Source: Muribaculaceae bacterium
GTDB taxonomy: Bacteria; Bacteroidota; Bacteroidia; Bacteroidales; Muribaculaceae
Assembly (NCBI GenBank): GCA_017548365.1
Contig: JAFZAC010000031.1
Location: forward strand, 5,248-69,247
DNA length: 64,000 nucleotides
Direction: 5' to 3'
Part shown: piece after piece, positions 18,067-41,394 of the stretch
How positions within the stretch are numbered: the stretch's first letter is position 1
Layout of the letters: every line of letters begins with the position of its first letter
The notes under the pieces: generated by a model
Seen by the model: only the letters and a program-made list of their open reading frames with translations
What the model was told of the DNA's origin: nothing
Databases searched by the model: none
Program-made: the position numbers and the translations under genes

Positions 18067-18957
18067 ATGAAGAAAGCTTTACTATTACTAATGGGGGCAT
18101 GGGCATTGCTCACAAGCGCGCAGCAGGTGACTGTGACAAGCAGCACTACCCTGCTGCGAGGTGTGGAAGACGCCTTCTACCCCTGCCTGAACTCCGCTGG
18201 CGACAAGCTACTCTACAGTGATGTGGATGCTCACGGCCTGAAAATGCTCAACTTGACCACACAAGCCGTCACCATCATAAGCGACAAGAACGGTGCAGGC
18301 TTCAACGCCAAGTGGAGCAGCGACGGCAACGTGTACTATGTTACCAGCGCCATCAACCCAAGCGACCGTCTCGTGTATCGCACGGGAATGCGCTATGACA
18401 TGGAGCGCAAGATGAGCGATGTTGTTCTTGAGGCACAGCATGGAGCAGTCCATCTTGAGACTGGCACCCAGGGAATGGCGTTCAATGGCACTCATCGCAC
18501 CTTTTCAACAGCTCCAAACCGAGGACTGAGCGTCTACACAACCGGTTCGGAGGTTGTCCTGAACATCAACGGCAAAGAGAGTCGCTACACTCCCGTCGAG
18601 AGCTATGCCGGCTACTTGTGGGCTTCGGTGTCTCCCAAAGGCGACAAGGTGGCATTTTTCGCTGCCGGCAAGGGCATCATTGTAATAAATCTTGAAGGAA
18701 AAGTGCTAGCCGAACTCGGCAACTATGAGATGCCCTGCTGGTACAACAACGACTACATCGTGGCACAAAACGCCAGCGACGACGGTTATCAGTTCACATC
18801 CTCCCAGATACTATTGCTCAAGGCCGACGGTACGTTCCACCATGAGCTCACACCAAAGACCTCGATGACTATGCAACCCTCCTGCGGTGGCGGCAAGATA
18901 GTGTACACCACCATCGACGGAAAACTCACAATGATAACATTAGATATTAAAGAATAA
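18067..18957 (+). CDS. Exported TolB-like (PD40) beta-propeller protein
   Basis: Signal peptide; repeated blades (FYPCLNSAGDKLLYS, AKWSSDGNVYY, ASVSPKGDKVAFF). Confidence 0.6.
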   Translation: MKKALLLLMGAWALLTSAQQVTVTSSTTLLRGVEDAFYPCLNSAGDKLLYSDVDAHGLKMLNLTTQAVTIISDKNGAGFNAKWSSDGNVYYVTSAINPSDRLVYRTGMRYDMERKMSDVVLEAQHGAVHLETGTQGMAFNGTHRTFSTAPNRGLSVYTTGSEVVLNINGKESRYTPVESYAGYLWASVSPKGDKVAFFAAGKGIIVINLEGKVLAELGNYEMPCWYNNDYIVAQNASDDGYQFTSSQILLLKADGTFHHELTPKTSMTMQPSCGGGKIVYTTIDGKLTMITLDIKE

Positions 18958-18978
18958 CTGCAACACATTATATATATT

Positions 18979-21585
18979 ATGAAAAAGAGCATCTTTACCA
19001 TAACAATGATGATGGTTGCAGTAATGGCGACCAGCATAGCAAGGGCCCAGTACATGCCACACGTGTACATCAATCCTGGCCACGGCGGCCACACCAGCAA
19101 CGACCGCAACGTGGTTATATATCCGTTCGTTCAAGGCGACACAGCAGGTTACTGGGAGTCGAACTCCAACCTCAAGAAAGGCTTTGCACTAAGAAACTGC
19201 CTCAATTTGAAAGGCTACACAACCAGCATATCACGAGTGAGAAACGACGAGAGCGACGACTTGGCTCTATCGACCATCGTGGCCCTGTGCAATCAAAGTG
19301 GAGCCGACATCTTCTATTCCATACACAGCAACGCAACAGGTGTGCCGGCACGACGTAACCATATCTTGGGCCTTTACCGCGGTCCCACAGGTTCGCCAGT
19401 GGTTGCCAACAGTGATGTGCTAACACTGAAACTCATGCAACGCCTGCAAGTTAACCAGGCTGCAGTGTGGACCAGCAATTACCAGATTGCCGGCGACTTC
19501 ACCTTCTACCCCGACTGGAACAATGCCGGCCTTGGTGTGCTGCGTGGCAACAACGCAGTGTCGATGCTCAGCGAAGGCTCGTTCCATGATTATATTCCCG
19601 AGACCTACCGTTTGATGAACGACAATTATTGCTGGATGGAGGGTTGGAACTTCTCGCTCGGCGCCGACGACTACTTCGGCTACCAATTCTTTGGTAAAGG
19701 TTGTGTGGCAGGCAACATCCGTGACAACCGCATGCCCCGCATTATCAATGACTTTATCATGTTTGGCGACGACAACCGCGAACCGGTGAGCAATGCCACC
19801 GTCATCCTAATGGATATGAATGACGTGCCACTCGACACCTGCTACACCGACGACATGTACAACGGAATATATGCCTTTAAGATGCTTGATCCAGGCACAT
19901 ATAAGATTAAGGTGGAACAAGAACACTACTATGGTCAAACCAAAGAAGTCACAGTAGAGGCTAACCACTCGTCATACTGCAACTTCGACCTGGCACGAAT
20001 ACGTGAGACACCTCCAGAGGTCATCAACTACTCTCCTGTATGGAACGAGGGCGATGCACCGCTCAAGGCCAACACACCTGTGATTTTTGAGTTCAACTGG
20101 GACATGAATACCAACGTTACCGAGAATGCGTTCCACATCGAACCAGCCGTGGAAGGTCACTTCAGCTGGGAAGACAGTAACTACCGTATGATATTCGAGC
20201 CCAACGACGCCTACGACATCAACACCCTCTACACTGTTACTCTCGACACCACTGCCGAGCATGGCGGCGGCATGAAGCTGCAGGAGCCTTTCACCTTGCA
20301 ATTCAAGACCACCTACCGCAAGTATCTCGAGGTGATCGACATTTTCCCGCATGAGGGCGACCCAGTGCACTACAAGAGCGCCACCATTGAGCTTCGCACC
20401 GACTCGATGCTCAACAACAGCTACTATTACGACAAGATACTCCTTACAGACAAGGACGGCAATCTCTTGACGTATAACCGCCGCAACACCAAGACAGGCA
20501 AGAACACCGACCCATTCGGATTCATCCGCATACCTGTTGCCACTAACATGACGCCAGGCGAGGAATATACCCTCACCATCCTGAGTGAGATGAGCGACAC
20601 CGCAGGAATCCACCTGCCCGAGACCATCGTGCACAAGTTCACCGCTGTCGATGCCGGCGAGGAGAAACCTGATGCAACGGTTATTGAAGGATTCGAGGAC
20701 GCAAGCACATTCTCGATGGTAACAGCAACCGCCAACGGTCCCGAAAACACTCAGCTCAGCAACTCAACCGACAAGCTCTTCGGCAGTAAGTCGCTCCAAA
20801 TTAAATATCCATGTTCGCCTCAGGGTGGTCAATACGAATTTACCAGTCCAGCCATTTCTGAAGCTACAATAGCTGGTAACGAAGAACTCTCGTTGCACAT
20901 CTTTGGCGACATGAGCTATGTGGACATAAACATTATGCTCAATAGCACCGATAACACCGATCACCCAATTATAGATTTCGGCAAAATCGACTTCCATGGA
21001 TGGCGCTACGTCACTGGCAATGGCACACTTGATCCTAACAAGACCTACAAGATTGAATCAATATTTATAGGCAACGATCCCGAAAACCCCATTATGATAT
21101 CCAGCGCCACCATCAAACTCGACAACCTGCTCAAGAGCCAAAAGACTTCGGGAGTATATGGCGACGTGGATGGTGACGGAATAGTGTCGAGTGTCGACAT
21201 TACAGCACTCTACAACTACCTGCTCAATGGTGATGACACTTTCCTTAGCACCAGTGATATAGATGGTGATGGGATTGTTTCAAGTGTAGATATCACCATC
21301 ATCTACAACATACTGCTTGGAAACACCAGCAAAGCGCCAGAGACTGAACTTGAACCAACTACCAACACTACCGTCAAGGTAGGTCCAGTGCCTTCGAGTG
21401 ACTACATCGTTGCAAGCGCAGCCGGTTATATCCAGGGCGTAGAACTCTATGACCTGAACGGCAACCTGGTGGCACGCAACGGCGGCAATTACATGAATGT
21501 GGAAGGCCTTCGCAACGGGCACTATATATTAAAGGTGTACACTGGCGACACAGTCTCCTCACACCATGTGGCAGTGAAACACTGA
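18979..21585 (+). CDS. N-acetylmuramoyl-L-alanine amidase (Amidase_3) + carboxypeptidase-regulatory-like + Ig-like domains + dockerin + T9SS CTD
   Basis: VYINPGHGG / WESN / SIHSNA / LSEGSFHD zinc-amidase motifs; dockerin at 21160-21321; C-terminal VELYDLNGNLV...GHYILKV type A CTD. Confidence 0.85.
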   Translation: MKKSIFTITMMMVAVMATSIARAQYMPHVYINPGHGGHTSNDRNVVIYPFVQGDTAGYWESNSNLKKGFALRNCLNLKGYTTSISRVRNDESDDLALSTIVALCNQSGADIFYSIHSNATGVPARRNHILGLYRGPTGSPVVANSDVLTLKLMQRLQVNQAAVWTSNYQIAGDFTFYPDWNNAGLGVLRGNNAVSMLSEGSFHDYIPETYRLMNDNYCWMEGWNFSLGADDYFGYQFFGKGCVAGNIRDNRMPRIINDFIMFGDDNREPVSNATVILMDMNDVPLDTCYTDDMYNGIYAFKMLDPGTYKIKVEQEHYYGQTKEVTVEANHSSYCNFDLARIRETPPEVINYSPVWNEGDAPLKANTPVIFEFNWDMNTNVTENAFHIEPAVEGHFSWEDSNYRMIFEPNDAYDINTLYTVTLDTTAEHGGGMKLQEPFTLQFKTTYRKYLEVIDIFPHEGDPVHYKSATIELRTDSMLNNSYYYDKILLTDKDGNLLTYNRRNTKTGKNTDPFGFIRIPVATNMTPGEEYTLTILSEMSDTAGIHLPETIVHKFTAVDAGEEKPDATVIEGFEDASTFSMVTATANGPENTQLSNSTDKLFGSKSLQIKYPCSPQGGQYEFTSPAISEATIAGNEELSLHIFGDMSYVDINIMLNSTDNTDHPIIDFGKIDFHGWRYVTGNGTLDPNKTYKIESIFIGNDPENPIMISSATIKLDNLLKSQKTSGVYGDVDGDGIVSSVDITALYNYLLNGDDTFLSTSDIDGDGIVSSVDITIIYNILLGNTSKAPETELEPTTNTTVKVGPVPSSDYIVASAAGYIQGVELYDLNGNLVARNGGNYMNVEGLRNGHYILKVYTGDTVSSHHVAVKH

Positions 21586-21596
21586 TTTTAGTGAAG

Positions 21597-21861: not shown

Positions 21862-22731
21862 ATGAGCGCAAGTCAATTCGCTAAAGTAATTGCTGAGAGT
21901 TCGTCAACACACTCCGAGTGGAGTTTAATAGACGGCAACAATGTAGTGGCTCACGCCATGATTTCGGGAATCAACCCCTATTTCTTGACGCGTCGTGAGA
22001 TAAGTCATATAATCAGGCTCGAACTGCCACGCGAATTTTTCAAACGTCGCTGGGACAAGGTATTGTTCTATGGCGCAGGATGTTCAACACCCGAAAGAAA
22101 AAAGATAGTAGAACTATCGCTTGTTGCACAATTCAAGACCCCAGTAACTGTTGAGAGTGACCTTGTGGGAGCCGCTCACGGACTTCTCCAGCATGAGGCC
22201 GGCTTAGCCTGTATTCTTGGTACAGGATCCAATTCGTGCTTCTATGATGGAGAAAAAATTACCAAGAGTGTGACCGCCGGTGGTTTCATTTTGGGCGATG
22301 AGGGCAGTGGCTCATCGATGGGCCGCATCTTCCTGAGCGACGTTCTCAAGAACCTTGCTCCTCGTGAACTAATCGAGGAGTTCTATGCAGTTAACAAGAT
22401 TACAACATCGGATGTGATGGACTCGGTGTACAACAACCCACACGCCAACCACAACCTCCACAACTACTCATTCTTCCTTGCCGACCACCTCGACAACGAG
22501 TATGCCCGTGACTTGGTAACCAACGAGATTAAGCGATTCTTCGACCGCAATTTGTGTCAATATGAATACAAGGACTATCCCATCTGTTTCGTTGGCTCGA
22601 TAGCGACAAGATACAGCGAAATTCTGCTTCAGGTAGCTTACAGCTACAACATGAATGTTAAGAAAATCGTAAGCGAATCAATGCCCGGCTTGGTAGCCTA
22701 CCACTCAGTTGGGTTCAATGCCGTAAGATAA
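21862..22731 (+). CDS. BadF/BadG/BcrA/BcrD-family sugar-kinase-like protein with an atypical phosphate-1 loop
   Basis: FYGAGC, SDLVGAA, ILGTGSNS, GFILGDEGSG and FVGSIA motifs are shared with the 38969 kinase, but the N-terminal loop reads IAESSSTHSEW. Confidence 0.8.
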   Translation: MSASQFAKVIAESSSTHSEWSLIDGNNVVAHAMISGINPYFLTRREISHIIRLELPREFFKRRWDKVLFYGAGCSTPERKKIVELSLVAQFKTPVTVESDLVGAAHGLLQHEAGLACILGTGSNSCFYDGEKITKSVTAGGFILGDEGSGSSMGRIFLSDVLKNLAPRELIEEFYAVNKITTSDVMDSVYNNPHANHNLHNYSFFLADHLDNEYARDLVTNEIKRFFDRNLCQYEYKDYPICFVGSIATRYSEILLQVAYSYNMNVKKIVSESMPGLVAYHSVGFNAVR

Positions 22732-22941: not shown

Positions 22942-23559
22942 ATGAACAGAACATTCACAATAATGATAATCGCCGCAATTGTCATGAGCGGAGCAACAAA
23001 AGTCAATGCCCAAGATTTCGATCCTAACGACGAGCCAAAAAATGAGTTGTCATTGGGCTACGGAGCAATCAATTCCTCTAACGTCCTCGACGTTTTTGTC
23101 GACGTTGTTAGCGCAGTATTCGGAGCGCGATATACCAATGAGAAATTCATAGGTCCATTCTCGGCCGAGTATTTCCGACATGTGAGTCCCCTAGTGGCAG
23201 TGGGAGGAATTGGCGTTTACAACTACCACAAGCAAGATGTGATTCAAAACGATGTGGTAACAGGGAAGCGTACCAGTAATTACTTCTCAATTATTCCAGC
23301 CGTGAAATTCAACTGGCTTCGCAAGCAAAACTGGGGATTGTACTCTAAGCTTGGCGCGGGTTACACTCATGGCCGTTATACCACCACCGGCAAAGATTCA
23401 AGCGGGGACTATACAGAGAGTATAAGCGACAATAATTTCTTCAATTTCCAAGTATCGCTTATTGGCGCCGAAGCCGGCAACCGCAATGTGCGAGGTTTTG
23501 CCGAACTGGGCTTTGGAGAGCAAGGCCTCATACATGGCGGAGTGAGATTCAGATTCTAA
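22942..23559 (+). CDS. Small outer-membrane beta-barrel protein
   Basis: Signal peptide, NELSLGYG start, amphipathic strands, C-terminal GGVRFRF. Confidence 0.75.
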   Translation: MNRTFTIMIIAAIVMSGATKVNAQDFDPNDEPKNELSLGYGAINSSNVLDVFVDVVSAVFGARYTNEKFIGPFSAEYFRHVSPLVAVGGIGVYNYHKQDVIQNDVVTGKRTSNYFSIIPAVKFNWLRKQNWGLYSKLGAGYTHGRYTTTGKDSSGDYTESISDNNFFNFQVSLIGAEAGNRNVRGFAELGFGEQGLIHGGVRFRF

Positions 23560-23885
23560 ACCCTAAAACTGATAACCCCAACATTCTCAAAAGATTTGTC
23601 TTATAAAGACGTAAAACAAAAACACTCAAGTAACAAGGAACGGAAAAGTAAAATTTTTCCGCTCCTTTTTTTGTAGAGAAGAGCCGCAATCAGGCAAAAT
23701 AACACCCCGACTACAATCATGTCTGAAATGAGGGACTCCTTGTTTTTTATGTATCTTTTTCTAAATTTTTGTTTATAATTTATAAATAAAATGCTTTTAA
23801 GAAAAATGAACACTTTTTTTATTTTTTATTTGAAATCTTTGTTGTAAATTTGTAAGCTTAAGTTTGTTGCAAAAAACTCATCATT

Positions 23886-26800
23886 ATGGCAAAATATAAG
23901 AAAATACTAATTGTGGCATTAACACTGATGGCATTACCAGTCATTCAGTTGCGTGCCCAAGAAAGCGAAGTAACCGCGACAGCCGAGAATACCGAAATCA
24001 CCGAGAGTGCAAAGCAAGCCATCCAGCAAATCATTGCTGCAAATCTTCCCGAAAATATGGGAATTGGCACGCTCAAAGCTCGCAACATTGACATTTCGGG
24101 CGATTCAATTAAGGTTGACCTTAGTGAGAACTTTGGAGATGTCCCCTTTACTACCGAGAGTATAGACAAACTGAAAAAAGACATCAAGTCGACCTTAGGT
24201 GAGGGATATGACGACCATAAGGTTTACCTCACAATAGCGGGCAACCCCATCGAGAACTATTTTTCGGAATTCGACAACAGCTACAAGCGCAAGCACAACA
24301 GCTTTGTGAGTCCTGTCGACGAGAACCGCAATTATAAGAAAGGGTTGAGCGGAAACATAGTTGCAGTGTGGCCCAGCCATGGGTGGTATTTTGAGCCCAA
24401 GCTCAACCGCTGGGAATGGCAGCGTGCGCGCATGTTCCAGACTGTTGAGGACATGTACACCCACAGCTATATGATACCCTATATCATTCCTATGCTCGAG
24501 AATGCAGGAGCCTATGTATGGGACGCCCGTGAGCGCGACACCCACAACTTTGGTGCCGTAGTCGACAACGATGGCGGCAATGCACAGAAAGGTTACAACG
24601 AGCATAATGGCAGCAAGAAATGGAAAGACGGCGAAGGCAACGGCTTTGCCTACAAGCGCGACAACTATCGTGACTTTGAAAACCCGTTTGACGAAGGCAC
24701 CTATCGTATGATAGAAGCTGAAAAAGACAAGAAAAAAGAAGCTACAGCATCATGGGATGTAGATATGCCCGAGGCTGGCACTTATGCAATATATGTGAGC
24801 TACAAATCGCTTCCCAACAGCGCTCACGACGCCACCTATACTATCAACTCGTTGAACGGCAGCCAGCAGTTCAAGGTTGACCAGTCGATGGCAGGCGGCG
24901 TTTGGGTTTACTTGGGCTCGTTTGAGCTCGCCAAAGGCATCAACAAGAACGTAGTGACTCTTAGCAACCACAGCTCTGACAAGAAAGCAGTCATTACAGC
25001 CGACGCCATCAAAGTAGGTGGCGGAAAAGGCAACATAGTTCGCCGTGTAGCACTTCCCACACCCGAGAACAAAGCCATTGCCGAGAAAAATGACGACTTG
25101 AAATATCTGGGCAAAGAAGGTATCAACTACCAGTATGTGGGCAGCGGCGAGCACCCATGGTTCCATCTAGGTTCACGTTACTTCCTCCAGTGGTCGGGAT
25201 TCCCTCATGAGGTTTATTCTACAAGCACTGGCGTCAACGACTATGTTGACGATTACCGCAGCCGCGGCGAATGGGTGAACTATCTTGCCGGCGGCAGTGA
25301 CGTATTGCCAAACAAGCCAGGCTTGAAGGTTCCCGTCGATGTTTCGTTCTGTCTCCACACCGATGCAGGCACTACAACCAACGACGACATCATTGGCACC
25401 CTTCTCATATACTGCACCACTAAGAATGGCAAACAATTTGGAAAATATGAAAACGGCACACCACGCGAACTCTCGCGCCAGTATGCCAACATAGTCTCGA
25501 CCGAAGTTGTCAACGATATTCGTGCCAAGTATGAGCCCAAGTGGACACGTCGCGGCATGTGGGATAAGAGCTACTACGAGGCACGCGTTCCTGAAGTCCC
25601 CGCTTTACTGATGGAGCTGCTTTCTCATCAAAATTTCGCCGACATGAAATATGGTCTCGACCCAGAATTCCGCTTTGATGTTAGCCGTTCGATTTATAAA
25701 GGCATTGTAAAATTCATCGCAAAACGCGACCACCGCGAGTGCGTCATCCAACCACTCCCTGTGAATTCATTCACCATCAACAAGCTCAGCGACAACTTCT
25801 TCATGCTCAACTGGGAGCCAACCCCCGATCCATTGTGCTCAAGCGCTGTAGCAAAAAAATATGTTGTATTGGAGAAAGTGGGCGCCAACGATGGCTTCAA
25901 GGAAATTGAAATCGTAGACGATCCTCACTACTCTATTCGCATCGACGACAACGAGATACACAGCTTCAAAATCATTGCTATGAACGAGGGCGGACGCAGT
26001 TTCCCCAGCGAGGCATTGTCGATAGGCGTTGCTAAGAACAGCAAAGGAACCGTAATGGTGGTCAACGATTTTACCCGTGTGAGCGGTCCCGACTGGTTCG
26101 ACAGTGGCAAAATGGCTGGATTCTATGACGAGAAGGACCACGGCGTGCCTTACATGGAGCAAATCAACTATCTGGGTTCACAGTTTGAGTTCCGCCGTAA
26201 TCTCGAGTGGCGCGATGACGACGCTCCAGGCTTTGGAGCCAGCCGCAGCAACCACGAGACCGAGAACATTGCCGGCAACACATTCAACTACCCATCTCTT
26301 CATGGTGCAGCAATAATGAATGCTGGATACTCATTTGTATCCACAAGCGTAAAAGCACTTGAGAATGGCGATGTAGACCTCACTGGCTATTGCGCTGTTG
26401 ACATGATTATGGGCAAACAAAAAGAGACTCCCACCGGACGAGGCGCGAAACCTTCTCGTTTCAAGGCGTTGACTCCCGGCATCATGAACGCATTGACCAA
26501 TTACACCCGCTATGGCGGCAATGTGCTGATGACAGGCGCCTATGTGGCCAGCGATATCTGGGACAAAGACAAACCTGCGTCAAATGAAGTGAACTTTGCA
26601 CAAAACGTAATGGGTTATACCTGGGTAGATGGCCGAGCCACCCTCCGGGGCGAGGTCTACAGCGTTCCCAGTGCTTTGAAGCTGAGTGACGGCATGAGCA
26701 ACCTGAAATTCTATAACACATTGAACAGCGAGTTCTATGCTGTTGAGTCGCCCGACGCAATCAAAGCCAGCGACAGCCATGGTGCGACAATCCTGCGATA

Positions 26801-26951
26801 CAGCGAGAACAATATACCTGCCGGTATAGCCTCAAGCCGCAATGGCTACAAAACTGTGGTTGTTGGTTTCCCCTTCGAGACCATCAAGAACGAGAACGAG
26901 CGCAACGAATTCATGAACCGTGTGCTCAACTTCTTCTCAAACGAGCAATAA
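23886..26951 (+). CDS. Amidase_3-like protein with inserted Golvesin/xanthan-lyase-C-like module and Fn3 (usually annotated xanthan lyase/Fn3 protein)
   Basis: Signal peptide; WPSHG, VEDMY, SFCLHTDAG and LMELLSHQN amidase-type ligands; an inserted WDVDMPEAGTYAIY...VWVYLGSF...ADAIK module; Fn3 LNWEPTPD...MNEGGRS. Confidence 0.7.
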   Translation: MAKYKKILIVALTLMALPVIQLRAQESEVTATAENTEITESAKQAIQQIIAANLPENMGIGTLKARNIDISGDSIKVDLSENFGDVPFTTESIDKLKKDIKSTLGEGYDDHKVYLTIAGNPIENYFSEFDNSYKRKHNSFVSPVDENRNYKKGLSGNIVAVWPSHGWYFEPKLNRWEWQRARMFQTVEDMYTHSYMIPYIIPMLENAGAYVWDARERDTHNFGAVVDNDGGNAQKGYNEHNGSKKWKDGEGNGFAYKRDNYRDFENPFDEGTYRMIEAEKDKKKEATASWDVDMPEAGTYAIYVSYKSLPNSAHDATYTINSLNGSQQFKVDQSMAGGVWVYLGSFELAKGINKNVVTLSNHSSDKKAVITADAIKVGGGKGNIVRRVALPTPENKAIAEKNDDLKYLGKEGINYQYVGSGEHPWFHLGSRYFLQWSGFPHEVYSTSTGVNDYVDDYRSRGEWVNYLAGGSDVLPNKPGLKVPVDVSFCLHTDAGTTTNDDIIGTLLIYCTTKNGKQFGKYENGTPRELSRQYANIVSTEVVNDIRAKYEPKWTRRGMWDKSYYEARVPEVPALLMELLSHQNFADMKYGLDPEFRFDVSRSIYKGIVKFIAKRDHRECVIQPLPVNSFTINKLSDNFFMLNWEPTPDPLCSSAVAKKYVVLEKVGANDGFKEIEIVDDPHYSIRIDDNEIHSFKIIAMNEGGRSFPSEALSIGVAKNSKGTVMVVNDFTRVSGPDWFDSGKMAGFYDEKDHGVPYMEQINYLGSQFEFRRNLEWRDDDAPGFGASRSNHETENIAGNTFNYPSLHGAAIMNAGYSFVSTSVKALENGDVDLTGYCAVDMIMGKQKETPTGRGAKPSRFKALTPGIMNALTNYTRYGGNVLMTGAYVASDIWDKDKPASNEVNFAQNVMGYTWVDGRATLRGEVYSVPSALKLSDGMSNLKFYNTLNSEFYAVESPDAIKASDSHGATILRYSENNIPAGIASSRNGYKTVVVGFPFETIKNENERNEFMNRVLNFFSNEQ

Positions 26952-28438: not shown

Positions 28439-28455
28439 ATCAAAATATTACTCAA

Positions 28456-32270: not shown

Positions 32271-33599
32271 ATGAATGCATTAACAAAATTCAAACAGTCA
32301 CCCTGGGCATGGATACCAACTCTTTATTTTATTGAGGGCATACCTTATTTCCTTGTTAATGAGATATCAGTAATCTTATTCAAGAAAATGGGTGTTCCCA
32401 ATGGCCAAATGGCACTCTTCACGAGTCTTATATATCTCCCTTGGGTAATCAAACCCTTGTGGAGTCCGTTTGTCGACATCATCAAGAAGAAACGCTGGTG
32501 GATTGTAATGATGCAGATGCTCATGGCAACAACCTTAATCCTGCTCACCGTCACCATGCCATCGCCTGGAGAAGAGATGATAAAAGCGGGCACTACGCCA
32601 ATGAGCATGTTTACCGTTACTCTTATCTTTTTCATCATCACAGCATTTGCCTCGTCAACACACGATATAGCTGCCGACGGTTTCTACATGCTGGCACTGA
32701 CACAGAAAAACCAGTCAGCTTTTGTAGGAGTTCGTTCCACGTTCTACCGACTTGCCAATATTTTTGGAAATGGCGTGCTGGTGTGGATTGCCGGATATCT
32801 TGAGACCAAGACTTCAATTCCCGCAGGATGGAAAATCACAATGGGAATAGCTTCGGCCATCATGTGCTTATTCTACATTTACCACCTATTCTTCATTCCT
32901 CGCCCCGACAGTGACCGTTCCTCACTTGAAGGATCTTTAAAAAACAACAGTTCACAAGTGATGAAAGAGTTTGGACGTACTATTGTGACCTATTTCAAGA
33001 AACCCGGTGTGTGGATTGCTATCATCTTCATGCTGCTTTATCGCTTGCCCGAGGCCTTCCTGCTCAAGATGTGTAAGCCTTTCATGCTCGACCCAATAGA
33101 CAAGGGTGGTCTATCGATGACAACACAAGACGTGGGTCAAGCTTACGGCATCATTGGTGTGGCTGCCCTTTTAGCTGGTGGTATTCTTGGCGGAATATTC
33201 TCATCAAAAGTTGGTCTAAAGAAAGCCATTTGGCTAATGGCCGGTTGCATGACACTGCCTTGCCTAACCTTTGTATATCTCTCAATGGCTCAGCCCACAA
33301 ACTACTTCATCATCTGCACCTGCATCGTGATTGAGCAGTTTGGTTATGGCTTTGGATTCACAGCCTATATGCTCTACATGATGTTCTTCTCGGAAGGCGA
33401 GTTCAAGACCTCACACTATGCCCTGTGTACGGCATTCATGTCGCTGAGTATGATGATTCCAGGCATGTTTGCTGGCTACATACAGGAGTCTATAGGCTAC
33501 TCGGCATTCTTCTGGATGGCATTTGCTTGCAGTATAGCAACAATTGCTGTAACCTTCCTTGCCGACCGCAAAATTGATCCAGAATACGGACTCAAATAA
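32271..33599 (+). CDS. ampG: AmpG-like MFS muropeptide permease
   Basis: LPWVIKPLWSPFVD, ASSTHDIAADGFY and HYALCTAF motifs; 12-TM pattern; cluster context. Confidence 0.82.
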   Translation: MNALTKFKQSPWAWIPTLYFIEGIPYFLVNEISVILFKKMGVPNGQMALFTSLIYLPWVIKPLWSPFVDIIKKKRWWIVMMQMLMATTLILLTVTMPSPGEEMIKAGTTPMSMFTVTLIFFIITAFASSTHDIAADGFYMLALTQKNQSAFVGVRSTFYRLANIFGNGVLVWIAGYLETKTSIPAGWKITMGIASAIMCLFYIYHLFFIPRPDSDRSSLEGSLKNNSSQVMKEFGRTIVTYFKKPGVWIAIIFMLLYRLPEAFLLKMCKPFMLDPIDKGGLSMTTQDVGQAYGIIGVAALLAGGILGGIFSSKVGLKKAIWLMAGCMTLPCLTFVYLSMAQPTNYFIICTCIVIEQFGYGFGFTAYMLYMMFFSEGEFKTSHYALCTAFMSLSMMIPGMFAGYIQESIGYSAFFWMAFACSIATIAVTFLADRKIDPEYGLK

Positions 33600-33623: not shown

Positions 33624-34877
33624 ATGAAACGTCACATATTATTCATAACTTTAGCTATAGTGGCAATGGCAGCAAGTGCTGCTGTAAAACCAGGTATTGA
33701 GGTGCTGCGCGATAGAGGTTTTAAGGAACTACAAGGCAAGCGCGTGGGATTGGTGACAAACCCCAGTGGCATTGACAACAACCTCAAGTCAACAGTCGAC
33801 ATCCTCAACGAAGCACCTGGCGTGAAACTGGTAGCACTTTTCGGTCCTGAGCATGGAGTACGCGGCAATGCCCACGCAGGCGACAAAGTAGCCGACGATG
33901 TCGACCCTGCAACTGGCGTCAAGATGTATTCCCTATATGGCAAGACCCACGAGCCTACAACCGAAATGCTGAAGGACATTGATATTCTCATCTACGACAT
34001 CCAGGACATTGGCTGCCGCAGTTACACGTTCTATGCCACCATGGGAGTGTGCATGCAGGCCTGTGCCAAGCACAATAAAGAATTTATGGTCCTTGACCGC
34101 CCCAACCCCCTTGGAGGCAACAAGGTAGAAGGCAACCTTGTGGAAGAAGGCTATTTCTCGTTTGTGAGCAAGTATGCCATTCCTTACCTCTATGGTCTCA
34201 CTCCTGGCGAATTGGCGCAATATCTCAACGAAGAAGGCATCATTGGCAAGGAGTCAAAAACCGGCAAAAAGTGCAAGCTGACTGTCATCCCCATGGAAGG
34301 CTGGACTCGCGACATGAAGTTCCGCGACACCGGTATGCCCTGGGTACTCCCTTCTCCTCAGATTCCTGCTCCCGAGAACGCATTCTTCTATCCCGTGAGC
34401 GGCATCCTTGGCGAGTTGTATATCTTCAACACCGGCATTGGCTACACTTTGCCATTTGAATGTTTTGCCGCCTCTTGGATTGATGCTGAAGAGCTTGCAA
34501 AGAACATGAACGCACTGAATCTGCCAGGAATGCACTTCCGTCCCATCAACTACAAACCATTCTTTGCATTAAGCGTGGCAGTCGACAAGACATTGCAAGA
34601 GGTGCATGGTGTTCAGATTTATATCACCGACTTTGACAAGGCAAATCTTGTGCTCACTCAGTTCTACTTCCTTCAAGTGATTCACGAGATGTATCCCAAG
34701 AAGCAACTCTTTGAGCAGAATCCACAGCGCTATGCGATGTTTGACAAGGTGTGCGGCACAAAGGAAATTCGCGAGCGCTTCTGCAAACGCTATAAAGTAG
34801 AAGACATTATCGACTACTTCAATAAAGACACCGAAGCTTTTAAAGCAAAATCAAGCAAATATTACCTCTATGAGTAA
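33624..34877 (+). CDS. namZ: Exo-beta-N-acetylmuramidase NamZ (DUF1343)
   Basis: Signal peptide; VGLVTNPSG, LFGPEHG, YDIQDIGCRSYT, LDRPNP and PSPQIP motifs. Confidence 0.9.
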   Translation: MKRHILFITLAIVAMAASAAVKPGIEVLRDRGFKELQGKRVGLVTNPSGIDNNLKSTVDILNEAPGVKLVALFGPEHGVRGNAHAGDKVADDVDPATGVKMYSLYGKTHEPTTEMLKDIDILIYDIQDIGCRSYTFYATMGVCMQACAKHNKEFMVLDRPNPLGGNKVEGNLVEEGYFSFVSKYAIPYLYGLTPGELAQYLNEEGIIGKESKTGKKCKLTVIPMEGWTRDMKFRDTGMPWVLPSPQIPAPENAFFYPVSGILGELYIFNTGIGYTLPFECFAASWIDAEELAKNMNALNLPGMHFRPINYKPFFALSVAVDKTLQEVHGVQIYITDFDKANLVLTQFYFLQVIHEMYPKKQLFEQNPQRYAMFDKVCGTKEIRERFCKRYKVEDIIDYFNKDTEAFKAKSSKYYLYE

Positions 34878-34937: not shown

Positions 34938-37727
34938 TTGGACGAGAAACATAAAAAATATCTCAAGCGCATTAGGGAGTTCATCCCTAAAGACCGCATC
35001 TATACCGACGACTTGCACTGCCTGGCGTGGGGCACTGATGCTGGCTTCTACCGCAACATTCCGCAAGTGGTGGTGCGCTCCAGCAACGAGCAGGAAGTAT
35101 CGAAACTGCTAAGCATTGCCAATGAGATGCAGCTTCCAGTAACATTCCGCGCTGCCGGCACAAGTTTGAGCGGACAGACCAACACCGACTCCATCCTCAT
35201 TGTGGCAGGCAAGAACTGGGAAAACTATGAGGTTGCTCCCGACGCCAGCTACATCAAGCTTCAGCCTGGAATTGTAGGCAGTGAAGTCGACAAGATTCTC
35301 GCCCGTCACAACCGCGCATTCACCCCCGACCCTGCCAGCAAGAACTCATCGATGGTGGGTGGCATCGTCATCAACAATGCCAGCGGCATGAGCTGTGGCA
35401 CACATGCCAACAGCGACCGTATGATGCTCTCTATGCGCATCGTCATGGCCGACGGCACCGTTCTCGACACTGGCGACAAGCGCAGTCGCGACAATTTCAG
35501 TTTATCTCATCCACAATTCATCAAGCGCATTGAAGAGATTCGCGACCGAGTAATGGCCGACGAGGAGCTTGTGGCACGCATTCGTCGCAAGTATTCCATC
35601 AAGAACGTAACAGGTCTCAATATTTCGCCGTTTGTACTCTACAACGACCCATTCGACATCATCACACATTTGATGGTTGGCAGTGAGGGAACTCTAGCAT
35701 TTGGCAGCGAGTTCACTATGAAGACTGGACATCTCTACCCCTGCCGCGCCAGCGCCATGCTATATTTCCAAGACATGCGTGAGTCGTGCGAAGCAGTGGT
35801 AGCTATGAAGAAAGGCCCTGTGCACTGCGCCGAGATTCTTGACAAAAAATCACTTGCAAGTGTGGATGACAATACTGGTGAAAATCTCACAGCAGTACTC
35901 ATTCAGACCTTTGCCGACAGTCAAGAAGAGCTGCAGAGCAATATCGACCAAATCATGTCGATTCTCGAGCCTTTCCACCTCTTTGTGCCAGCCAACTTTA
36001 CCGATGATCCAAAAGTATATGGCAAGTACTGGGCTATACGCTCAGGAATCTTCCCCAGTGTGGGCGGCACTCGTCCCCTTGGCACCACAGTACTTATCGA
36101 GGATGTGGCATTCCACATTGAGGATCTTCCCGAGGCCACTGTTGATTTGGCGCAGATGCTGATCGACTATGGTTATGACGACAGTTGCATCTACGGCCAC
36201 GCACTTGAGGGCAATTACCACTTCATAATTTCGCAGTCGTTTGACACAGATGAAGAAGTAAAGCGCTATGAAAACCTGATGCGCGCTGTAGTGAAGTTGG
36301 TTATCGACAAATATGACGGTTCGCTAAAGGCCGAGCATGGCACTGGCCGCAATATGGCTCCATTTGTCAAGAAAGAATGGGGCGAGAAGGCCTATCAAGT
36401 GATGCTTGACGTTAAGCAACTTTTCGATCCGAAAGGCATCCTCAACCCTGGTGTCATCTTCAACGACGACCCTGAATGCTTTATCAAGAACCTCAAGCCC
36501 ATGCCCTTAACCAATGACAACGTTAACAAATGCATTGAGTGCGGATTCTGTGAGGTGAACTGCGTGAGCAGCGGATTGACACTTTCATCACGCCAGCGCA
36601 TCATTGTTCAACGCGAGATATCTCGACTAAAAGCGACAGGCGAAGACCCTGAGCGATTGAAACGGCTTGAGAAGCAATATCAATACTACGGCGAGGCCAC
36701 TTGCGCCGCCGACGGACTATGCTCTACTTCTTGCCCAATGGGAATCAATGTGGGAGAGCTCACTCACGACCTGCGAGCTGAACAGCACGGCAAGGGCACT
36801 ATGGCACACAGTTTTGGAGATAGTGTAGCCCGCCATTTCGCCATAACCAAAGGGGCACTCAAGTCGCTGCTCTATGTTGCTGGAGCAGCTCACACCGTGC
36901 TTGGCGACAGTGGAGTGATTGCCTTGGGCAAAGCTCTGCACTCCATAGGAGCTCCATTATGGACTCCCTCCACACCTAATCCTCACAAGATGAAATCGCT
37001 TAACCAGCAAGAGAGCGACAAGAAGGTTGTGTACTTCCCCAGCTGCCTAAACCAGTCGCTGGGACGCGACAAGCATGGCGCAGAAGTCGACCTCGTCGAC
37101 AAGGTGGTATCCTTCCTCAACAAGGCTGGATGGCAAGTCATCTATCCCGAGAACATGAATAACTTGTGCTGCGGCATGATTTGGAACAGCAAGGGTATGC
37201 CCGACATAGCTCAGCAAAAGACTGATGAGCTCGAACAGGCACTGCTCAAAGCCAGCGATGACGGCAAACTGCCAGTGGTGTGCGACCAAAGTCCATGTCT
37301 GCATCATATGCGAAAGCACATGAAGCAAGTGAAACCGCTGGAACTCATGGAATTTATCCACGACCTTGTAGCTCAAGATTTGGATTTCACTCCGACCGAC
37401 GAACCCATTGCTCTGCATCTTACCTGCTCCACAAGGCTGATGAAAATTGACGACAAAATACTCGATCTTGCCAAGCGATGCTCCACCAACGTGCTGATTC
37501 CCGAAGGTGTGGGATGCTGTGGCTTTGCCGGTAACAAAGGATTCACCCATCCCGAGCTCAACGCCTATGCCTTGCGCAAACTGCGTCCTCAAATCGAGGC
37601 AGCAGGCATACATCGTGGTTTCAGCAATAGCCGCACTTGCGAGATAGGCCTCACCACCCACAGTGGTGTACCCTACCAATCTTTAATTTACCTTATCGAT
37701 GAAGTGACAACAAAAAAAGACAAATAA
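34938..37727 (+). CDS. FAD-binding, Fe-S-containing D-lactate dehydrogenase-like oxidoreductase (Dld-II type)
   Basis: TTG start; FAD-PCMH (FRAAGTSLSGQ, PDPAS), KAEHGTG, ferredoxin motifs CIECGFC and CAADGLCSTSCP, two CCG domains. Confidence 0.82.
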   Translation: MDEKHKKYLKRIREFIPKDRIYTDDLHCLAWGTDAGFYRNIPQVVVRSSNEQEVSKLLSIANEMQLPVTFRAAGTSLSGQTNTDSILIVAGKNWENYEVAPDASYIKLQPGIVGSEVDKILARHNRAFTPDPASKNSSMVGGIVINNASGMSCGTHANSDRMMLSMRIVMADGTVLDTGDKRSRDNFSLSHPQFIKRIEEIRDRVMADEELVARIRRKYSIKNVTGLNISPFVLYNDPFDIITHLMVGSEGTLAFGSEFTMKTGHLYPCRASAMLYFQDMRESCEAVVAMKKGPVHCAEILDKKSLASVDDNTGENLTAVLIQTFADSQEELQSNIDQIMSILEPFHLFVPANFTDDPKVYGKYWAIRSGIFPSVGGTRPLGTTVLIEDVAFHIEDLPEATVDLAQMLIDYGYDDSCIYGHALEGNYHFIISQSFDTDEEVKRYENLMRAVVKLVIDKYDGSLKAEHGTGRNMAPFVKKEWGEKAYQVMLDVKQLFDPKGILNPGVIFNDDPECFIKNLKPMPLTNDNVNKCIECGFCEVNCVSSGLTLSSRQRIIVQREISRLKATGEDPERLKRLEKQYQYYGEATCAADGLCSTSCPMGINVGELTHDLRAEQHGKGTMAHSFGDSVARHFAITKGALKSLLYVAGAAHTVLGDSGVIALGKALHSIGAPLWTPSTPNPHKMKSLNQQESDKKVVYFPSCLNQSLGRDKHGAEVDLVDKVVSFLNKAGWQVIYPENMNNLCCGMIWNSKGMPDIAQQKTDELEQALLKASDDGKLPVVCDQSPCLHHMRKHMKQVKPLELMEFIHDLVAQDLDFTPTDEPIALHLTCSTRLMKIDDKILDLAKRCSTNVLIPEGVGCCGFAGNKGFTHPELNAYALRKLRPQIEAAGIHRGFSNSRTCEIGLTTHSGVPYQSLIYLIDEVTTKKDK

Positions 37728-37729
37728 AT

Positions 37730-38887
37730 ATGGCAAATAACAACAAACGACTCCTCTCGCTCGACATACTGCGAGGAATAACGATAGCTGGCATGTTGCT
37801 AGTGAACAACCCTGGCACATGGAGCCACATCTATGCCCCGCTCGAGCATGCCGAGTGGATTGGACTGACACCCACCGATCTGGTGTTCCCGTTCTTCATG
37901 TTTGTGATGGGCGTGTCGATGTTCTTCTCGTTGCGAAAGTTTAACTTCAAGCTCAGCGGAAGCTTGATGCTCAAGATATGCCGTCGCACTATTATCCTAT
38001 TCCTTATTGGATGGGTTGTACAGTGGTTTGGAATGTGGTTGAGAGGACTTTACAATCCCGAATCACAGTTCTTTGCCGACATGTTTGGCAAGTTGCGCAT
38101 CCTGGGCGTGTTCCAACGCTTGGCACTTGTCTATTTCTTCGGCTCAATGATTGCCGTGCTGTTCAAGAGCAAGTTCATTCCATGGATAATAGGACTTATT
38201 CTCATTGTATATGCCTTCATCTTGGGATTTGGCAATGGCTATGAGTTCTCGCTCGACAATATTCTCTCGCGCATCGACTGTGCCGTGCTCGGTGAAAATC
38301 ACATGTATCACGAAGAGGCTTTTGGTCTGAAACTCGCTCTCGACCCCGAGGGAATACTCAGCACACTGCCTTGTATTGCCCATGTGCTCATAGGCTTCAT
38401 GGTGGGCAAATGCATTAACACTGTACACAACAACCGCGACCGCATAGTTGAGATTGCAGTGTGGGGAGCACTCATGCTGCTTGTGGGATGGCTGCTGCAA
38501 TACGGAATTCCATGCAGCAAGAAAGCTTGGACATCTAGTTATGTTCTTATCACTTGCGGTATGGCATCATGTATTCTTGCGATGCTCATATATGCTATCG
38601 ACATCAAGGGTCACAACCGCTGGTGCCGCTTCTTCCAGGCATTTGGAATCAACCCGCTTTTCTGCTATTTAGTGGGCACCATTTTTGCCATAGTGTTTGG
38701 CACACTTCGCTTCGGCACCAATGCCGAAGGCGACCCAATTACTATAAAATCACTCATTTTCGACGGCTGGAGTGCCGTCACCACTACCCCCGAGGCAGCA
38801 TCTTGCCTCTATGCCATCACCTTCGTGCTCATCACCTGGTGCTTTGGATATTTCCTATACAAGAAAAAAATATATATAAAGATATAG
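37730..38887 (+). CDS. HGSNAT/DUF5009-like polytopic membrane protein (position of murT in murT-murK-murQ operons)
   Basis: RLLSLDILRG, MLLVN, DLVFPFF, GVFQRLA, DPEGILS and KKAWTSSY motifs; ~11 TM helices. Confidence 0.75.
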   Translation: MANNNKRLLSLDILRGITIAGMLLVNNPGTWSHIYAPLEHAEWIGLTPTDLVFPFFMFVMGVSMFFSLRKFNFKLSGSLMLKICRRTIILFLIGWVVQWFGMWLRGLYNPESQFFADMFGKLRILGVFQRLALVYFFGSMIAVLFKSKFIPWIIGLILIVYAFILGFGNGYEFSLDNILSRIDCAVLGENHMYHEEAFGLKLALDPEGILSTLPCIAHVLIGFMVGKCINTVHNNRDRIVEIAVWGALMLLVGWLLQYGIPCSKKAWTSSYVLITCGMASCILAMLIYAIDIKGHNRWCRFFQAFGINPLFCYLVGTIFAIVFGTLRFGTNAEGDPITIKSLIFDGWSAVTTTPEAASCLYAITFVLITWCFGYFLYKKKIYIKI

Positions 38888-38968: not shown

Positions 38969-39811
38969 ATGATTTTAATTGCTGACTGCGGCTCCACCAA
39001 GATTGACTGGTGTCTGCTTAACGGAAAAAAGAAAGTAGCGCAAATCTTCACTACCGGCATGAACGCTCTGCTCATGACCGAAGAGGAGATGGCCGAGTGC
39101 ATCATGACCGAACTCATGCCCAGCCTTCAAGGCTATGAGGTAACCGAGATTTTCTACTATGGTGCAGGAATCATTAATGATGAGATTAAAAATCAGGTAA
39201 TTAATGCGCTCAAGCGCAATATGCCAAACGTGACCAAAGTTGAGGTCGATAGCGACCTCCTGGCTGCTGCCAGAGCATTGTGCCAGTACGAGCCTGGAAT
39301 CGCATGCATTCTGGGCACCGGCAGCAACAGCTGCTATTACGACGGCGAAAAAGTCGTTGACAATGTTTCACCACTGGGCTATATTTTAGGTGATGAAGGT
39401 AGTGGTGCCGTTCTTGGCAAACTTCTTGTGGGCGATGTTCTCAAGAAGCAACTGCCAGAACATCTGTGCGAGAAGTTTCTCAAGGAGTACAACCTCGACC
39501 GCAACACCATTATCGACCGAGTGTATCGCAAACCAGCCGCCAACCGCTTCCTGGCGCAATTTGCTCCATTCCTGGAGCGCAATATCAATGAGCCTTCAAT
39601 ACGTGCCCTCGTTCTGCGTTCATTCACCGACTTCTTTGTTCGCAACGTGGCAAACTATCCTAAATACAAGGAACTTCCTTGCAATTTCGTAGGTTCAATC
39701 GCATTACTCCAGAAGGATGTACTTACCGAGGCTGCCAGCAAACTTGGCATCACAATTGGCAACATCATCCAAGCCCCAATGGAAGGACTTATAAAATATC
39801 ACTCTAAATAA
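38969..39811 (+). CDS. murK: N-acetylmuramic acid/N-acetylglucosamine kinase (BadF family)
   Basis: IADCGSTKIDW, FYYGAG, ILGTGSNS and LGDEGSG motifs; directly upstream of murQ. Confidence 0.75.
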   Translation: MILIADCGSTKIDWCLLNGKKKVAQIFTTGMNALLMTEEEMAECIMTELMPSLQGYEVTEIFYYGAGIINDEIKNQVINALKRNMPNVTKVEVDSDLLAAARALCQYEPGIACILGTGSNSCYYDGEKVVDNVSPLGYILGDEGSGAVLGKLLVGDVLKKQLPEHLCEKFLKEYNLDRNTIIDRVYRKPAANRFLAQFAPFLERNINEPSIRALVLRSFTDFFVRNVANYPKYKELPCNFVGSIALLQKDVLTEAASKLGITIGNIIQAPMEGLIKYHSK

Positions 39812-39874: not shown

Positions 39875-40696
39875 ATGGCATTTATTAAGATAAGCGAACA
39901 GCCCTCTCTCTACAACGACCTGGAGAAGAAGAGCGTGCATGAGCTCCTCACCGAGATCAACCAGGAAGACCACAAGGTCGCCGATGCTGTTCAAAAAGCT
40001 ATTCCTCAAATCGAAAAGCTTGTCACGGGCATCGTGGAGAGGATGAAGCGGGGAGGACGCATCTTCTACATGGGAGCCGGCACCAGTGGTAGGCTCGGTG
40101 TGCTCGATGCCAGCGAGATTCCTCCCACTTTTGGCATGGACCCAGGCTGGATCATTGGCTTGATTGCTGGTGGCGACTACGCCTTGCGCAACGCTGTGGA
40201 AAACGCCGAAGACGACGAGAAACAAGGATGGAAAGACTTGCAAGAGCACAACATCACTAGCAACGACACAGTGATTGGCATTGCGGCAAGCGGCACCACA
40301 CCTTATGTGATTGGCGCTTTGCGCGATGCTCGCGCTAATGGCTGTCTAACAGCTGCCATCACTAGCAACCCCGACGCCCCAATCAGCGAGGCCGCCGAAA
40401 TCCCCATCGAGATGATTGTTGGTCCTGAATATGTCACCGGCAGTAGCCGCATGAAGAGTGGCACGGGTCAAAAACTCATCTGCAATATGATTTCAACAAG
40501 TGTGATGATTCAGATGGGACGCGTGAAGGGCAACAAGATGGTGAACATGCAGCTCACCAACAAAAAACTCGTAGACCGCGGCACCCGCATGGTGGTCGAA
40601 GAGCTTAGGCTCTCTTACGATGAGGCCAAACGCCTGCTGCTCTTGCACGGCAGCGTTAAGAAAGCCTGCGATGCCTATCGCGGCATTACCGAATAA
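39875..40696 (+). CDS. murQ: N-acetylmuramic acid 6-phosphate etherase
   Basis: GAGTSGRLGVLDASE, AVENAED, ASGTTPY and GSSRMKSGT motifs. Confidence 0.96.
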   Translation: MAFIKISEQPSLYNDLEKKSVHELLTEINQEDHKVADAVQKAIPQIEKLVTGIVERMKRGGRIFYMGAGTSGRLGVLDASEIPPTFGMDPGWIIGLIAGGDYALRNAVENAEDDEKQGWKDLQEHNITSNDTVIGIAASGTTPYVIGALRDARANGCLTAAITSNPDAPISEAAEIPIEMIVGPEYVTGSSRMKSGTGQKLICNMISTSVMIQMGRVKGNKMVNMQLTNKKLVDRGTRMVVEELRLSYDEAKRLLLLHGSVKKACDAYRGITE

Positions 40697-40722
40697 CAAA
40701 ACATTAAAAAATTACCACAACT

Positions 40723-41394
40723 ATGAAACGTATCATTTTGACATTAATTGCTGTGGCAGCGGCTTGCATGGCGATTCAGGCACAACCACTCGAACGCACT
40801 GCGAACCAAGACAAGTACTATGTGCGTCGAGCTACACACTTCGACGACCTACCAGTATATCGCCACGACATCATCATGCTGGGCAATAGCCTAACCGATG
40901 GTGCCGAATGGAACGAGCTTTTCAACAATCCACACATAAAAAACCGTGGCATCATTGGCGATATCGTTCAAGGTCTCTATGAGCGCATGGAGCCAATTCT
41001 CAAGGGTAAGCCACGCAAAATCTTCATTCTGAGCGGTGTCAATGACGTTTCGCACGGCGTTGACGGCGACAGCATTGGACGAGCTATGGAGAAGCTAATC
41101 GTGCTAATCAAGAAGCGTTCGCCTAGGACTAAGATTTATCTCCAGTCGATGCTACCGTTCAACACCGACGTGCAGATGTGGAAACTGCTCGTTGGCCGTG
41201 AGCAAGTGGTCATTGACGGCAACCGCGCCATGGAGGAAGTTTGCAAGCGCCAAGGCGTGACGTGGATAAACCTCTACCCTCTCTTCGTTGACGAGAACGG
41301 CAAGCTGCGCGAGGACCTCACCAACGATGGTCTGCACTTGCTGGGACCAGGCTACCTGATATGGCGCGATGCCATAAAGAAATATATGAAGTAG
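40723..41394 (+). CDS. Exported SGNH/GDSL esterase
   Basis: Signal peptide; blocks GNSLT, NRGIIG, GVND and DGLH. Confidence 0.85.
   Translation: MKRIILTLIAVAAACMAIQAQPLERTANQDKYYVRRATHFDDLPVYRHDIIMLGNSLTDGAEWNELFNNPHIKNRGIIGDIVQGLYERMEPILKGKPRKIFILSGVNDVSHGVDGDSIGRAMEKLIVLIKKRSPRTKIYLQSMLPFNTDVQMWKLLVGREQVVIDGNRAMEEVCKRQGVTWINLYPLFVDENGKLREDLTNDGLHLLGPGYLIWRDAIKKYMK

Follow-up and report, generated by a model that had tools for sequence, protein, structure and literature searches.

Sixteen consecutive open reading frames (ORFs) on the + strand, designated here g1 to g16, occupy exactly positions 18067-41394 of the window, i.e. of the whole 64,000-nucleotide stretch of DNA analysed in this work, as established from the ORF list and a domain search. 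The stretch comes from a Muribaculaceae bacterium of the order Bacteroidales (assembly GCA_017548365.1, contig JAFZAC010000031.1, positions 5,248 to 69,247 of the forward strand). We consider it likely that this locus represents the Muribaculaceae version of the system for salvage of N-acetylmuramic acid (MurNAc) described in Tannerella forsythia, and that the host obtains through it all the MurNAc of its own cell wall. This view builds on the observed gene content, the orthology of two kinases, the conservation of gene order in relatives, the absence of murA and murB from the genome, and the finding that MurA and the locus are inversely distributed across the family. What is new here is that murA and murB have been lost lineage-wide; much of the locus itself has been described before in T. 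forsythia.

The genome is a metagenome-assembled genome (MAG) of 3.0 Mb in 44 contigs with a completeness of 97.4%. Neither MurA nor MurB was detected in it by hidden Markov model (HMM) search, and a tblastn search of the genome gave no match, the queries being six MurA proteins from Bacteroidales and MurA, MurB and GlmS of Escherichia coli. MurC, MurD, MurE, MurF, MraY, MurG, FtsW, FtsI and Ddl were all found by tblastn. In the congener RUG228, a 2.6-kb segment containing murA and murB is flanked by two genes whose orthologs adjoin each other in the genome studied here. Only 64 bp (C39:86446-86509) separate these orthologs, well inside a contig of 117 kb, and a gap in the assembly therefore does not account for the missing murA and murB. 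GlmS is absent from this genome by both HMM and tblastn searches, as well as from 22 of 24 congeners; glmS is retained in two congeners, but its flanking genes there correspond to genes on separate contigs of this genome, and the loss of GlmS is read from the HMM and tblastn negatives. GlmM, NagA and NagB are present. On contig C11, outside the window, an AmgK-like gene encoding APH and RapZ_C domains is located directly before a MurU-like gene. The initial annotation had proposed a check for glmS, glmM, glmU, murA and murB: murA, murB and glmS are absent, glmM is present, and glmU turned out to be uninformative. It had also suggested that the bacterium forages on foreign cell walls as a nutrient rather than only recycling its own. 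The walls of other bacteria do appear to be needed, but the nutrient framing needs to be revised, because with murA, murB and glmS absent, salvage is most likely obligatory for the synthesis of the host's own wall and catabolism forms a second branch.

The same loss was found across the genus and the family. MurA and MurB are both missing from 21 of the 24 genomes of the genus surveyed, and the other three have both, encoded by adjacent genes. In the family, represented by 301 genomes from 35 genera, MurA is absent from 124 genomes (77 of the 218 high-quality ones) and from all sampled members of 11 genera. MurQ, the MurNAc-6-phosphate etherase of the locus, shows the inverse distribution: 118 of the 301 genomes have MurQ and no MurA, 147 have MurA and no MurQ, 30 have both, and six have neither, while every MurA-less genus has MurQ and every MurQ-less genus has MurA. 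The locus is combined with the absence of MurA in Candidatus Limisoma gallistercoris, Ca. L. faecipullorum, MGYG-HGUT-01242, MGYG-HGUT-04213, UMGS1126, HRGM_Genome_3953, MGBC103329, MGBC147098, UBA2751, UBA4262 and UBA4277. Across the order, 390 of 401 high-quality genomes (97%) from about 140 families contain MurA, and the nine absences outside Muribaculaceae are scattered singletons from nine families. Several of these nine genomes (G039, G405, G516, G520, G537, G615, G649, G654 and G677) have family- or genus-mates that keep MurA; one of the nine may be a Tannerella, and the rest could be further independent MurNAc auxotrophs. As to how the mosaic within the genus arose, adjacency of murB and murA is common to four other genera, and the MurA proteins of the congeners form a clade of their own in an unrooted tree, not nested in another family. 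A recent horizontal re-acquisition of murB-murA by a few congeners is disfavoured by this clade, on a tree that is not decisive, and by the shared adjacency; the pattern is compatible with retention and repeated loss of a two-gene murB-murA cassette.

In T. forsythia, the genes Tanf_08345-08385 encode, in this order, a protein annotated as 'xanthan lyase', two glycosyltransferases (gtf), LytB, AmpG, YbbC/NamZ1, MurT, MurK and MurQ, and are co-transcribed (PMC5388701; bioRxiv 10.1101/2021.12.02.470905). The genes g3 and g5-g15 reproduce the T. forsythia system gene for gene, apart from two interposed genes for a DUF4922 protein and for a flavin adenine dinucleotide (FAD)/Fe-S dehydrogenase. The characteristic gene order, a MurK ortholog with K1058 upstream, and MurQ together with a NamZ of the GH171 family are all found here, and the salvage arrangement of T. 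forsythia type that the initial annotation had recognised is thus in agreement both with the published gene order (PMC5388701) and with the orthology of the MurK and K1058 kinases. In T. forsythia, too, murA and murB are missing and an AmgK/MurU-like bypass is present (Ruscitto 2017, PMC5388701; Mayer 2020, PMC7670621; Stasiak 2023, PMC10465942), which has been invoked as its route (PMC7670621). The species is, however, an oral pathogen, whereas the present case concerns a rumen and gut commensal family in which the loss extends over many species instead of one. In comparison with the T. forsythia operon, an amidase with a sorting domain of the type IX secretion system (T9SS), here carrying a dockerin, is linked upstream in the rumen locus, namZ and murT are separated by the FAD/Fe-S dehydrogenase gene g12 (absent from the operon as published), murQ is followed by an SGNH esterase gene (g16), and DUF4922 is encoded by a gene of its own, located after the gtf pair and before lytB. 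By sequence comparison, the locus is a variant of a known salvage system, with the predicted T9SS amidase, FAD/Fe-S dehydrogenase and SGNH esterase as the real additions. The earlier description of an expanded version with a T9SS stage is accordingly correct for the T9SS amidase, which is a conserved upstream companion in a genome encoding SprA, but not for the K1058 kinase and the 'xanthan lyase', which already belong to the T. forsythia system.

A scan with NamZ as query identified 80 species-level genomes (NamZ identity 61-95%), nearly all of them Muribaculaceae MAGs, from ruminant, chicken, mouse, rabbit and human hosts. The order g5-GT2-DUF4922-LytB-AmpG-NamZ-(g12)-MurT-MurK-MurQ-SGNH is kept in nearly all 80, and it is this conserved order, not the common orientation of the genes, that places the locus beyond chance. 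In most related loci g12 likewise separates namZ and murT, and one subclade lacks it; g7 is present in every related locus, and g8 is conserved as well; a g16 homolog follows murQ in most of them, and a g3 homolog precedes g5 in many. In 14 genomes from four genera, an ortholog of g2 shares its contig and strand with murQ and precedes it by 14-32 kb. Homologs of g1 occur near the locus in two related loci only, while no homolog of g4 was found in the 80 related loci, and g4 is not a conserved part of the locus.

The domain content that had been noted for LytB, AmpG, NamZ, the HGSNAT-like protein, MurQ and the SGNH esterase was borne out, as were the count of 16 co-oriented genes and the lack of a SusC/SusD pair: no TonB-dependent receptor or SusD domain was detected in any of the 16 proteins, and the locus does not qualify as a polysaccharide utilization locus. 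Three entries needed revision. The locus contains two kinases (g3 and g14) where one had been listed; of the two proteins assigned to Amidase_3, g2 scores above the family cut-off and g5 below it, its assignment being supported by fold; and the otherwise correct gene list had left off the dehydrogenase g12. Signal peptides are predicted for g2, g5, g11 and g16, and g10 and g13 are polytopic, while neither a signal peptide nor a membrane segment is predicted for g3, g6-g8, g12, g14 and g15.

The g2 protein (18979..21585, 868 aa) contains Amidase_3 (38.8 bits, above the cut-off, spanning about residues 1-340), CarboxypepD_reg, Big_5 and type I dockerin (Dockerin_1) domains and a T9SS type A C-terminal sorting domain (TIGR04183, 27.5 bits versus a cut-off of 23). 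The SprA translocon of T9SS is encoded in the genome (1254 bits to 6H3I), so that g2 qualifies as T9SS cargo and is predicted to be a surface or secreted N-acetylmuramoyl-L-alanine amidase. Since Amidase_3 enzymes often act in daughter-cell separation, and several g2 paralogs are present elsewhere in the genome (contigs C5, C31 and C41), g2 might instead be a division autolysin or an antibacterial weapon that is found beside the salvage genes by coincidence. We regard this as unlikely, because T9SS export places the enzyme beyond the outer membrane, away from the host's own sacculus, and because the linkage to murQ is conserved in four genera. The dockerin of g2 (residues ~727-780, encoded at 21157-21321 of the window) is found on g2 orthologs only in the closest relatives. 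Dockerins 48-78% identical to it occur in about 20 other ORFs of the genome (e.g. C2:179950, C5:134051, C11:119563, C20:91297, C24:72063 and C38:81731) and in the nearest relatives, on varied large proteins; as read from the dockerins alone, this suggests a putative cohesin-dockerin system in rumen Muribaculaceae.

The g5 protein (23886..26951, 1021 aa), predicted to be secreted, is by position the counterpart of the T. forsythia 'xanthan lyase' Tanf_08345 and combines a Golvesin_C domain, a sub-threshold Amidase_3 match, Fn3 and a C-terminal alpha/beta domain. The Amidase_3 match scores 22.8 bits against a Pfam cut-off of 27 and covers only the C-terminal half of the profile, so that g5 does not qualify as a family member by sequence, and a sequence search of the PDB gave no match. 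A fold search with the full-length protein was discarded, as it was swamped by Fn3 matches, and was therefore redone with residues 140-625, for which an AlphaFold model (predicted local distance difference test score, pLDDT, 84) was compared by Foldseek. The model matches many Amidase_3 enzymes, including 4RN7, 5EMI, 7RAG, 4LQ6, AmiA, AmiB, AmiC, CwlV and LytH, with a probability of 1.0 and target-normalised TM-scores of 0.4-0.54. A Golvesin_C/CBM-like domain, i.e. a carbohydrate-binding domain of xanthan-lyase type, is inserted in this amidase-type fold, and the residues H165, H491-x-D493 and E577, which are invariant in 24 orthologs, resemble amidase motifs. On the strength of the model, we propose that g5 acts as an amidase and removes the peptides from glycan strands. 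A plausible role would thereby follow for the T. forsythia 'xanthan lyase' gene, namely making peptide-free glycans, which have been shown to be the substrate of TfNamZ1 (bioRxiv 10.1101/2021.12.02.470905).

Downstream of g5, the tandem paralogous genes g6 and g7 (26999..29940, 479 and 494 aa) encode GT2-family glycosyltransferases that are predicted to be cytoplasmic and correspond to the gtf pair of T. forsythia, which has no assigned function (PMC5388701). The g8 product (29958..30938, 326 aa), also predicted to be cytoplasmic, is a DUF4922 protein (203.9 bits) with a weak match to GalT-like nucleotidyltransferases. The g9 gene (30916..32241, 441 aa) overlaps g8 by 23 nt and encodes a SpoIID/LytB-domain protein, a putative lytic transglycosylase (TIGR02669, 172 bits versus a cut-off of 83). 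Together with the DUF4922 and two GT2 genes, g9 forms a tight block that is cytoplasmic by appearance and has no assigned role.

Transport is represented by two polytopic proteins. For g10 (32271..33599, 442 aa), a permease of the major facilitator superfamily (MFS), the best match is the AmpG model TIGR00901 (183.9 bits, below the cut-off of 350); by analogy with the substrates of T. forsythia AmpG (PMC7670621), g10 is proposed to import the disaccharides of N-acetylglucosamine (GlcNAc) with MurNAc and with anhydro-MurNAc (anhMurNAc). The g13 protein (37730..38887, 385 aa) is NagX/HGSNAT-like (NagX, 127.6 bits, below the cut-off), has nine transmembrane-like segments and occupies the position of MurT; from this position and likeness, it is proposed to be a MurT-like MurNAc permease, and a link between the MurT and NagF families has been described (PMC13055268).

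The remaining enzymes process the sugars. The g11 protein (33624..34877, 417 aa) carries a signal peptide and both domains of NamZ (NamZ_N, 286.7 bits; NamZ_C, 127 bits), and its exo-beta-N-acetylmuramidase activity is predicted from that of TfNamZ1 (bioRxiv 10.1101/2021.12.02.470905). Two BadF-type kinases are encoded: g14 (38969..39811, 280 aa) is closest to MurK, the MurNAc 6-kinase of T. forsythia (296 bits to PDB 8OQW/8OW9), and g3 (21862..22731, 289 aa) to T. forsythia K1058 (334 bits to PDB 8OW7/8OQK), a MurK paralog without an established natural substrate, the gene for which is located directly upstream of the T. forsythia cluster (PMC10465942). The g15 protein (39875..40696, 273 aa) is MurQ (TIGR00274, 317 bits, cut-off 302; NF003915, 378 bits). 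The g12 gene (34938..37727) encodes a single polypeptide of 929 aa, in which FAD-oxidase, 4Fe-4S and CCG domains are fused and the FAD domain resembles LctD, glycolate oxidase and D-lactate dehydrogenase (D-LDH). We take its architecture (FAD_binding_4, FAD-oxidase_C, 4Fe-4S dicluster and CCG in one polypeptide of ~930 aa) to be of the Dld-II/YdiJ type, from which g12 differs in being located inside a MurNAc operon, and propose that it may serve as a D-lactate dehydrogenase for the lactyl group released by MurQ. The g16 protein (40723..41394, 223 aa) is a predicted secreted SGNH O-acetylesterase that matches the sialate O-acetylesterases 6NJC and 7PZG over its full length with 208 bits. Like g16, the EstA-type sialate O-acetylesterases of gut Bacteroidetes (PDB 6NJC) are secreted SGNH enzymes, but g16 adjoins murQ instead of sialic-acid genes. 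That it consistently follows murQ points to a role in removing O-acetyl groups from MurNAc, and we propose that g16 strips 6-O-acetyl groups from scavenged MurNAc or peptidoglycan. The two small proteins of the locus are less distinctive: g1 (18067..18957, 296 aa) has a signal-like N-terminus and a weak TolB-propeller match (22.8 bits), is predicted to be secreted and beta-propeller-like, and was assigned to no family, and the orphan g4 (22942..23559, 205 aa), with a signal peptide, a C-terminal Phe and weak OMP_b-brl matches (E 0.006-0.01), may be a small outer-membrane beta-barrel protein.

Several observations weigh against obligate salvage as outlined above. The empty-site proof of murA and murB loss is available for this genome alone, and nearly all surveyed genomes are MAGs. 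The closest relative, RGIG3368, keeps MurA, which makes the loss recent and patchy within the genus, and the Fisher's test of MurA against MurQ (2e-46) treats genomes as independent of phylogeny. The AmgK-like and MurU-like proteins are both below the NCBIfam equivalog cut-offs (MurU is the best NCBIfam match of the latter, with 148.6 bits against a cut-off of 250; the AmgK models give about 32 bits), and Bacteroidales that have MurA conserve the MurU-like gene as well, so that it is needed for the bypass but is not specific for auxotrophs. NagB working in reverse could cover the loss of GlmS, for which reason amino-sugar auxotrophy is not claimed here. The absence of GlmU was rejected as evidence of auxotrophy, since none of the 41 Bacteroidales genomes examined encodes a canonical bifunctional GlmU that scores above the cut-off. 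Within the locus, g9 has no predicted signal peptide or membrane segment, which makes the placement of LytB in an extracellular scheme doubtful, and among solved structures g16 is closest to a sialate O-acetylesterase and not to a peptidoglycan esterase. As a separate observation, the sole GlmU-like match in most of the 41 genomes is the 250-aa MurU-like nucleoside triphosphate (NTP)-transferase.

Some of these points would fit a prototroph that uses the locus for nutrition or for recycling of its own wall, in which murA and murB are missing because of MAG incompleteness or mis-binning, or are substituted by an unrecognised replacement enzyme. The genome is indeed a 97.4% complete MAG in 44 contigs, MurK and MurQ together with NagA, NagB and g12 constitute a full catabolic route, and the locus is also present in the 30 MurA-positive genomes of the family, similar clusters having been described in Bacteroides (bioRxiv 10.1101/2021.12.02.470905); because of this distribution, the locus alone does not imply auxotrophy. 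Prototrophy is nevertheless very unlikely, given the empty site in mid-contig at the place where the congener has both genes, the loss of both genes in 21 of 24 congeners, the absence of MurA from 124 of 301 family genomes as against 3% in the order, and its strong inverse relation with MurQ. To our knowledge, there is no route to uridine diphosphate (UDP)-MurNAc other than that of AmgK and MurU, and this was likewise counted against prototrophy. Obligate salvage of MurNAc through the locus remains the preferred interpretation.

With respect to transcription, boxes of the Bacteroidetes -7 type (TAnnTTTG) are located 27-71 nt before g1 (18010), g3 (21791), g4 and g5 (23845 and 23859), and none was found in the spacers of g5-g16, which are 2-81 nt long or replaced by overlaps. 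The gaps before g3, g4 and g5 are 276, 210 and 326 nt, respectively, and a terminator-like 9-bp hairpin with a T-run follows g4 (23641-23661). Scans for sigma-70 promoters and terminators gave counts no higher than in shuffled sequence, and only intergenic sites were used from them, alongside the TAnnTTTG box. Based on the boxes and the hairpin, about four units are predicted, probably [g1-g2], [g3], [g4] and [g5...g16], the spacing of 21 nt between g1 and g2 being probably bridged by a common transcript. A single operon of all 16 genes induced by peptidoglycan, as the common direction, the tight g5-g16 spacing and the co-transcription of Tanf_08345-08385 in T. forsythia (PMC5388701) might suggest, has little probability in view of the boxes, the wide gaps, the hairpin, and the absence of g4 from all relatives.

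Beyond g16, two further + strand genes were considered as members of the locus and rejected. The first of them, g17 (41464-42651), starts 69 nt after g16, is followed by a terminator-like hairpin (42803-42819), and encodes a flavodiiron protein that matches NF008887 'anaerobic nitric oxide reductase flavorubredoxin' with 657 bits (cut-off 635). Since no homolog was found in the 80 related loci, g17 probably represents a local passenger carried on the transcript. The second, g18 (42896-44476), encodes an OLD-like ATPase with AAA_21 and DUF4435 domains and is a candidate defence gene; its homologs (66% identity) occur in three related loci only (L028, L030 and L031), just downstream of the locus and on the opposite strand. 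The flanks also contain two - strand genes, one for a class A penicillin-binding protein (PBP1A) upstream (13579-16005) and one for a secreted NlpC/P60 endopeptidase downstream (44594-45256), homologs of which are located directly upstream of g5 in L068, L071 and L073.

Two other systems show partial likeness. The amiE-nagZ-namZ and murQRP genes for peptidoglycan recycling in the prototroph Bacillus subtilis follow the same logic, in which an amidase is followed by exo-glycosidases acting on peptide-free glycans and then by MurQ; however, uptake in B. subtilis is by the phosphotransferase system (PTS) transporter MurP, whereas an AmpG-family MFS permease and a MurT-like permease are predicted here, and the 16-gene locus contains no NagZ. 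In Pseudomonas, AmgK and MurU form a bypass for anabolic recycling of MurNAc. The genome analysed here resembles it in having an APH-type kinase gene directly before an NTP-transferase gene with MurU as its best model, and differs from it in the fusion of the kinase to a RapZ C-terminal domain and in the location of the pair outside the window.

From these comparisons we infer the following scheme of enzyme activities, transport, growth requirement and regulation. The T9SS-exported g2 and the secreted amidase-fold protein g5 would strip peptides from foreign peptidoglycan, and the g16 esterase would take off O-acetyl groups. NamZ (g11), possibly together with LytB (g9), would then free MurNAc and GlcNAc-(anh)MurNAc disaccharides, as expected from homology to the assayed T. 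forsythia enzymes. Homology likewise predicts that the disaccharides would be imported by AmpG (g10) and MurNAc by the MurT-like g13. In the cell, an anabolic route would lead through the AmgK-like and MurU-like proteins to UDP-MurNAc and further to MurC-F, MraY and MurG, while in a catabolic route MurK (g14) and MurQ (g15) would yield GlcNAc-6-phosphate, to be used by NagA and NagB, and D-lactate, to be oxidised by g12. Functions are thereby proposed for several parts that are unassigned in, or absent from, the T. forsythia operon: the amidase-fold 'xanthan lyase', the D-lactate dehydrogenase and the O-acetylesterase.

MurNAc auxotrophy has been presented as a special feature of T. forsythia (PMC5388701; PMC7670621), and no report of it, or of murA/murB loss, in Muribaculaceae was found in the literature, subscription journals being outside the coverage. 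On balance, we lean towards the view that MurNAc auxotrophy is a common lifestyle of Muribaculaceae, in which the murB-murA cassette has been lost and the wall sugar of neighbouring bacteria is used through the locus: MurA is missing from about 40% of the sampled species, among them lineages of the human, mouse, chicken and ruminant gut, and no sampled member of 11 of the 35 genera has it; the MurA-less genomes almost always keep the salvage locus (MurQ in 118 of 124). In this dominant gut family, dependence on MurNAc may help to explain why many members remain uncultured and, if the proposed dependency is true, addition of MurNAc or peptidoglycan to media could bring them into culture. Cell-wall cross-feeding would then be a structural dependency in gut communities, and the predicted reliance of these bacteria on the wall turnover of their neighbours bears on gut ecology and on the supply of immunoactive muropeptides.

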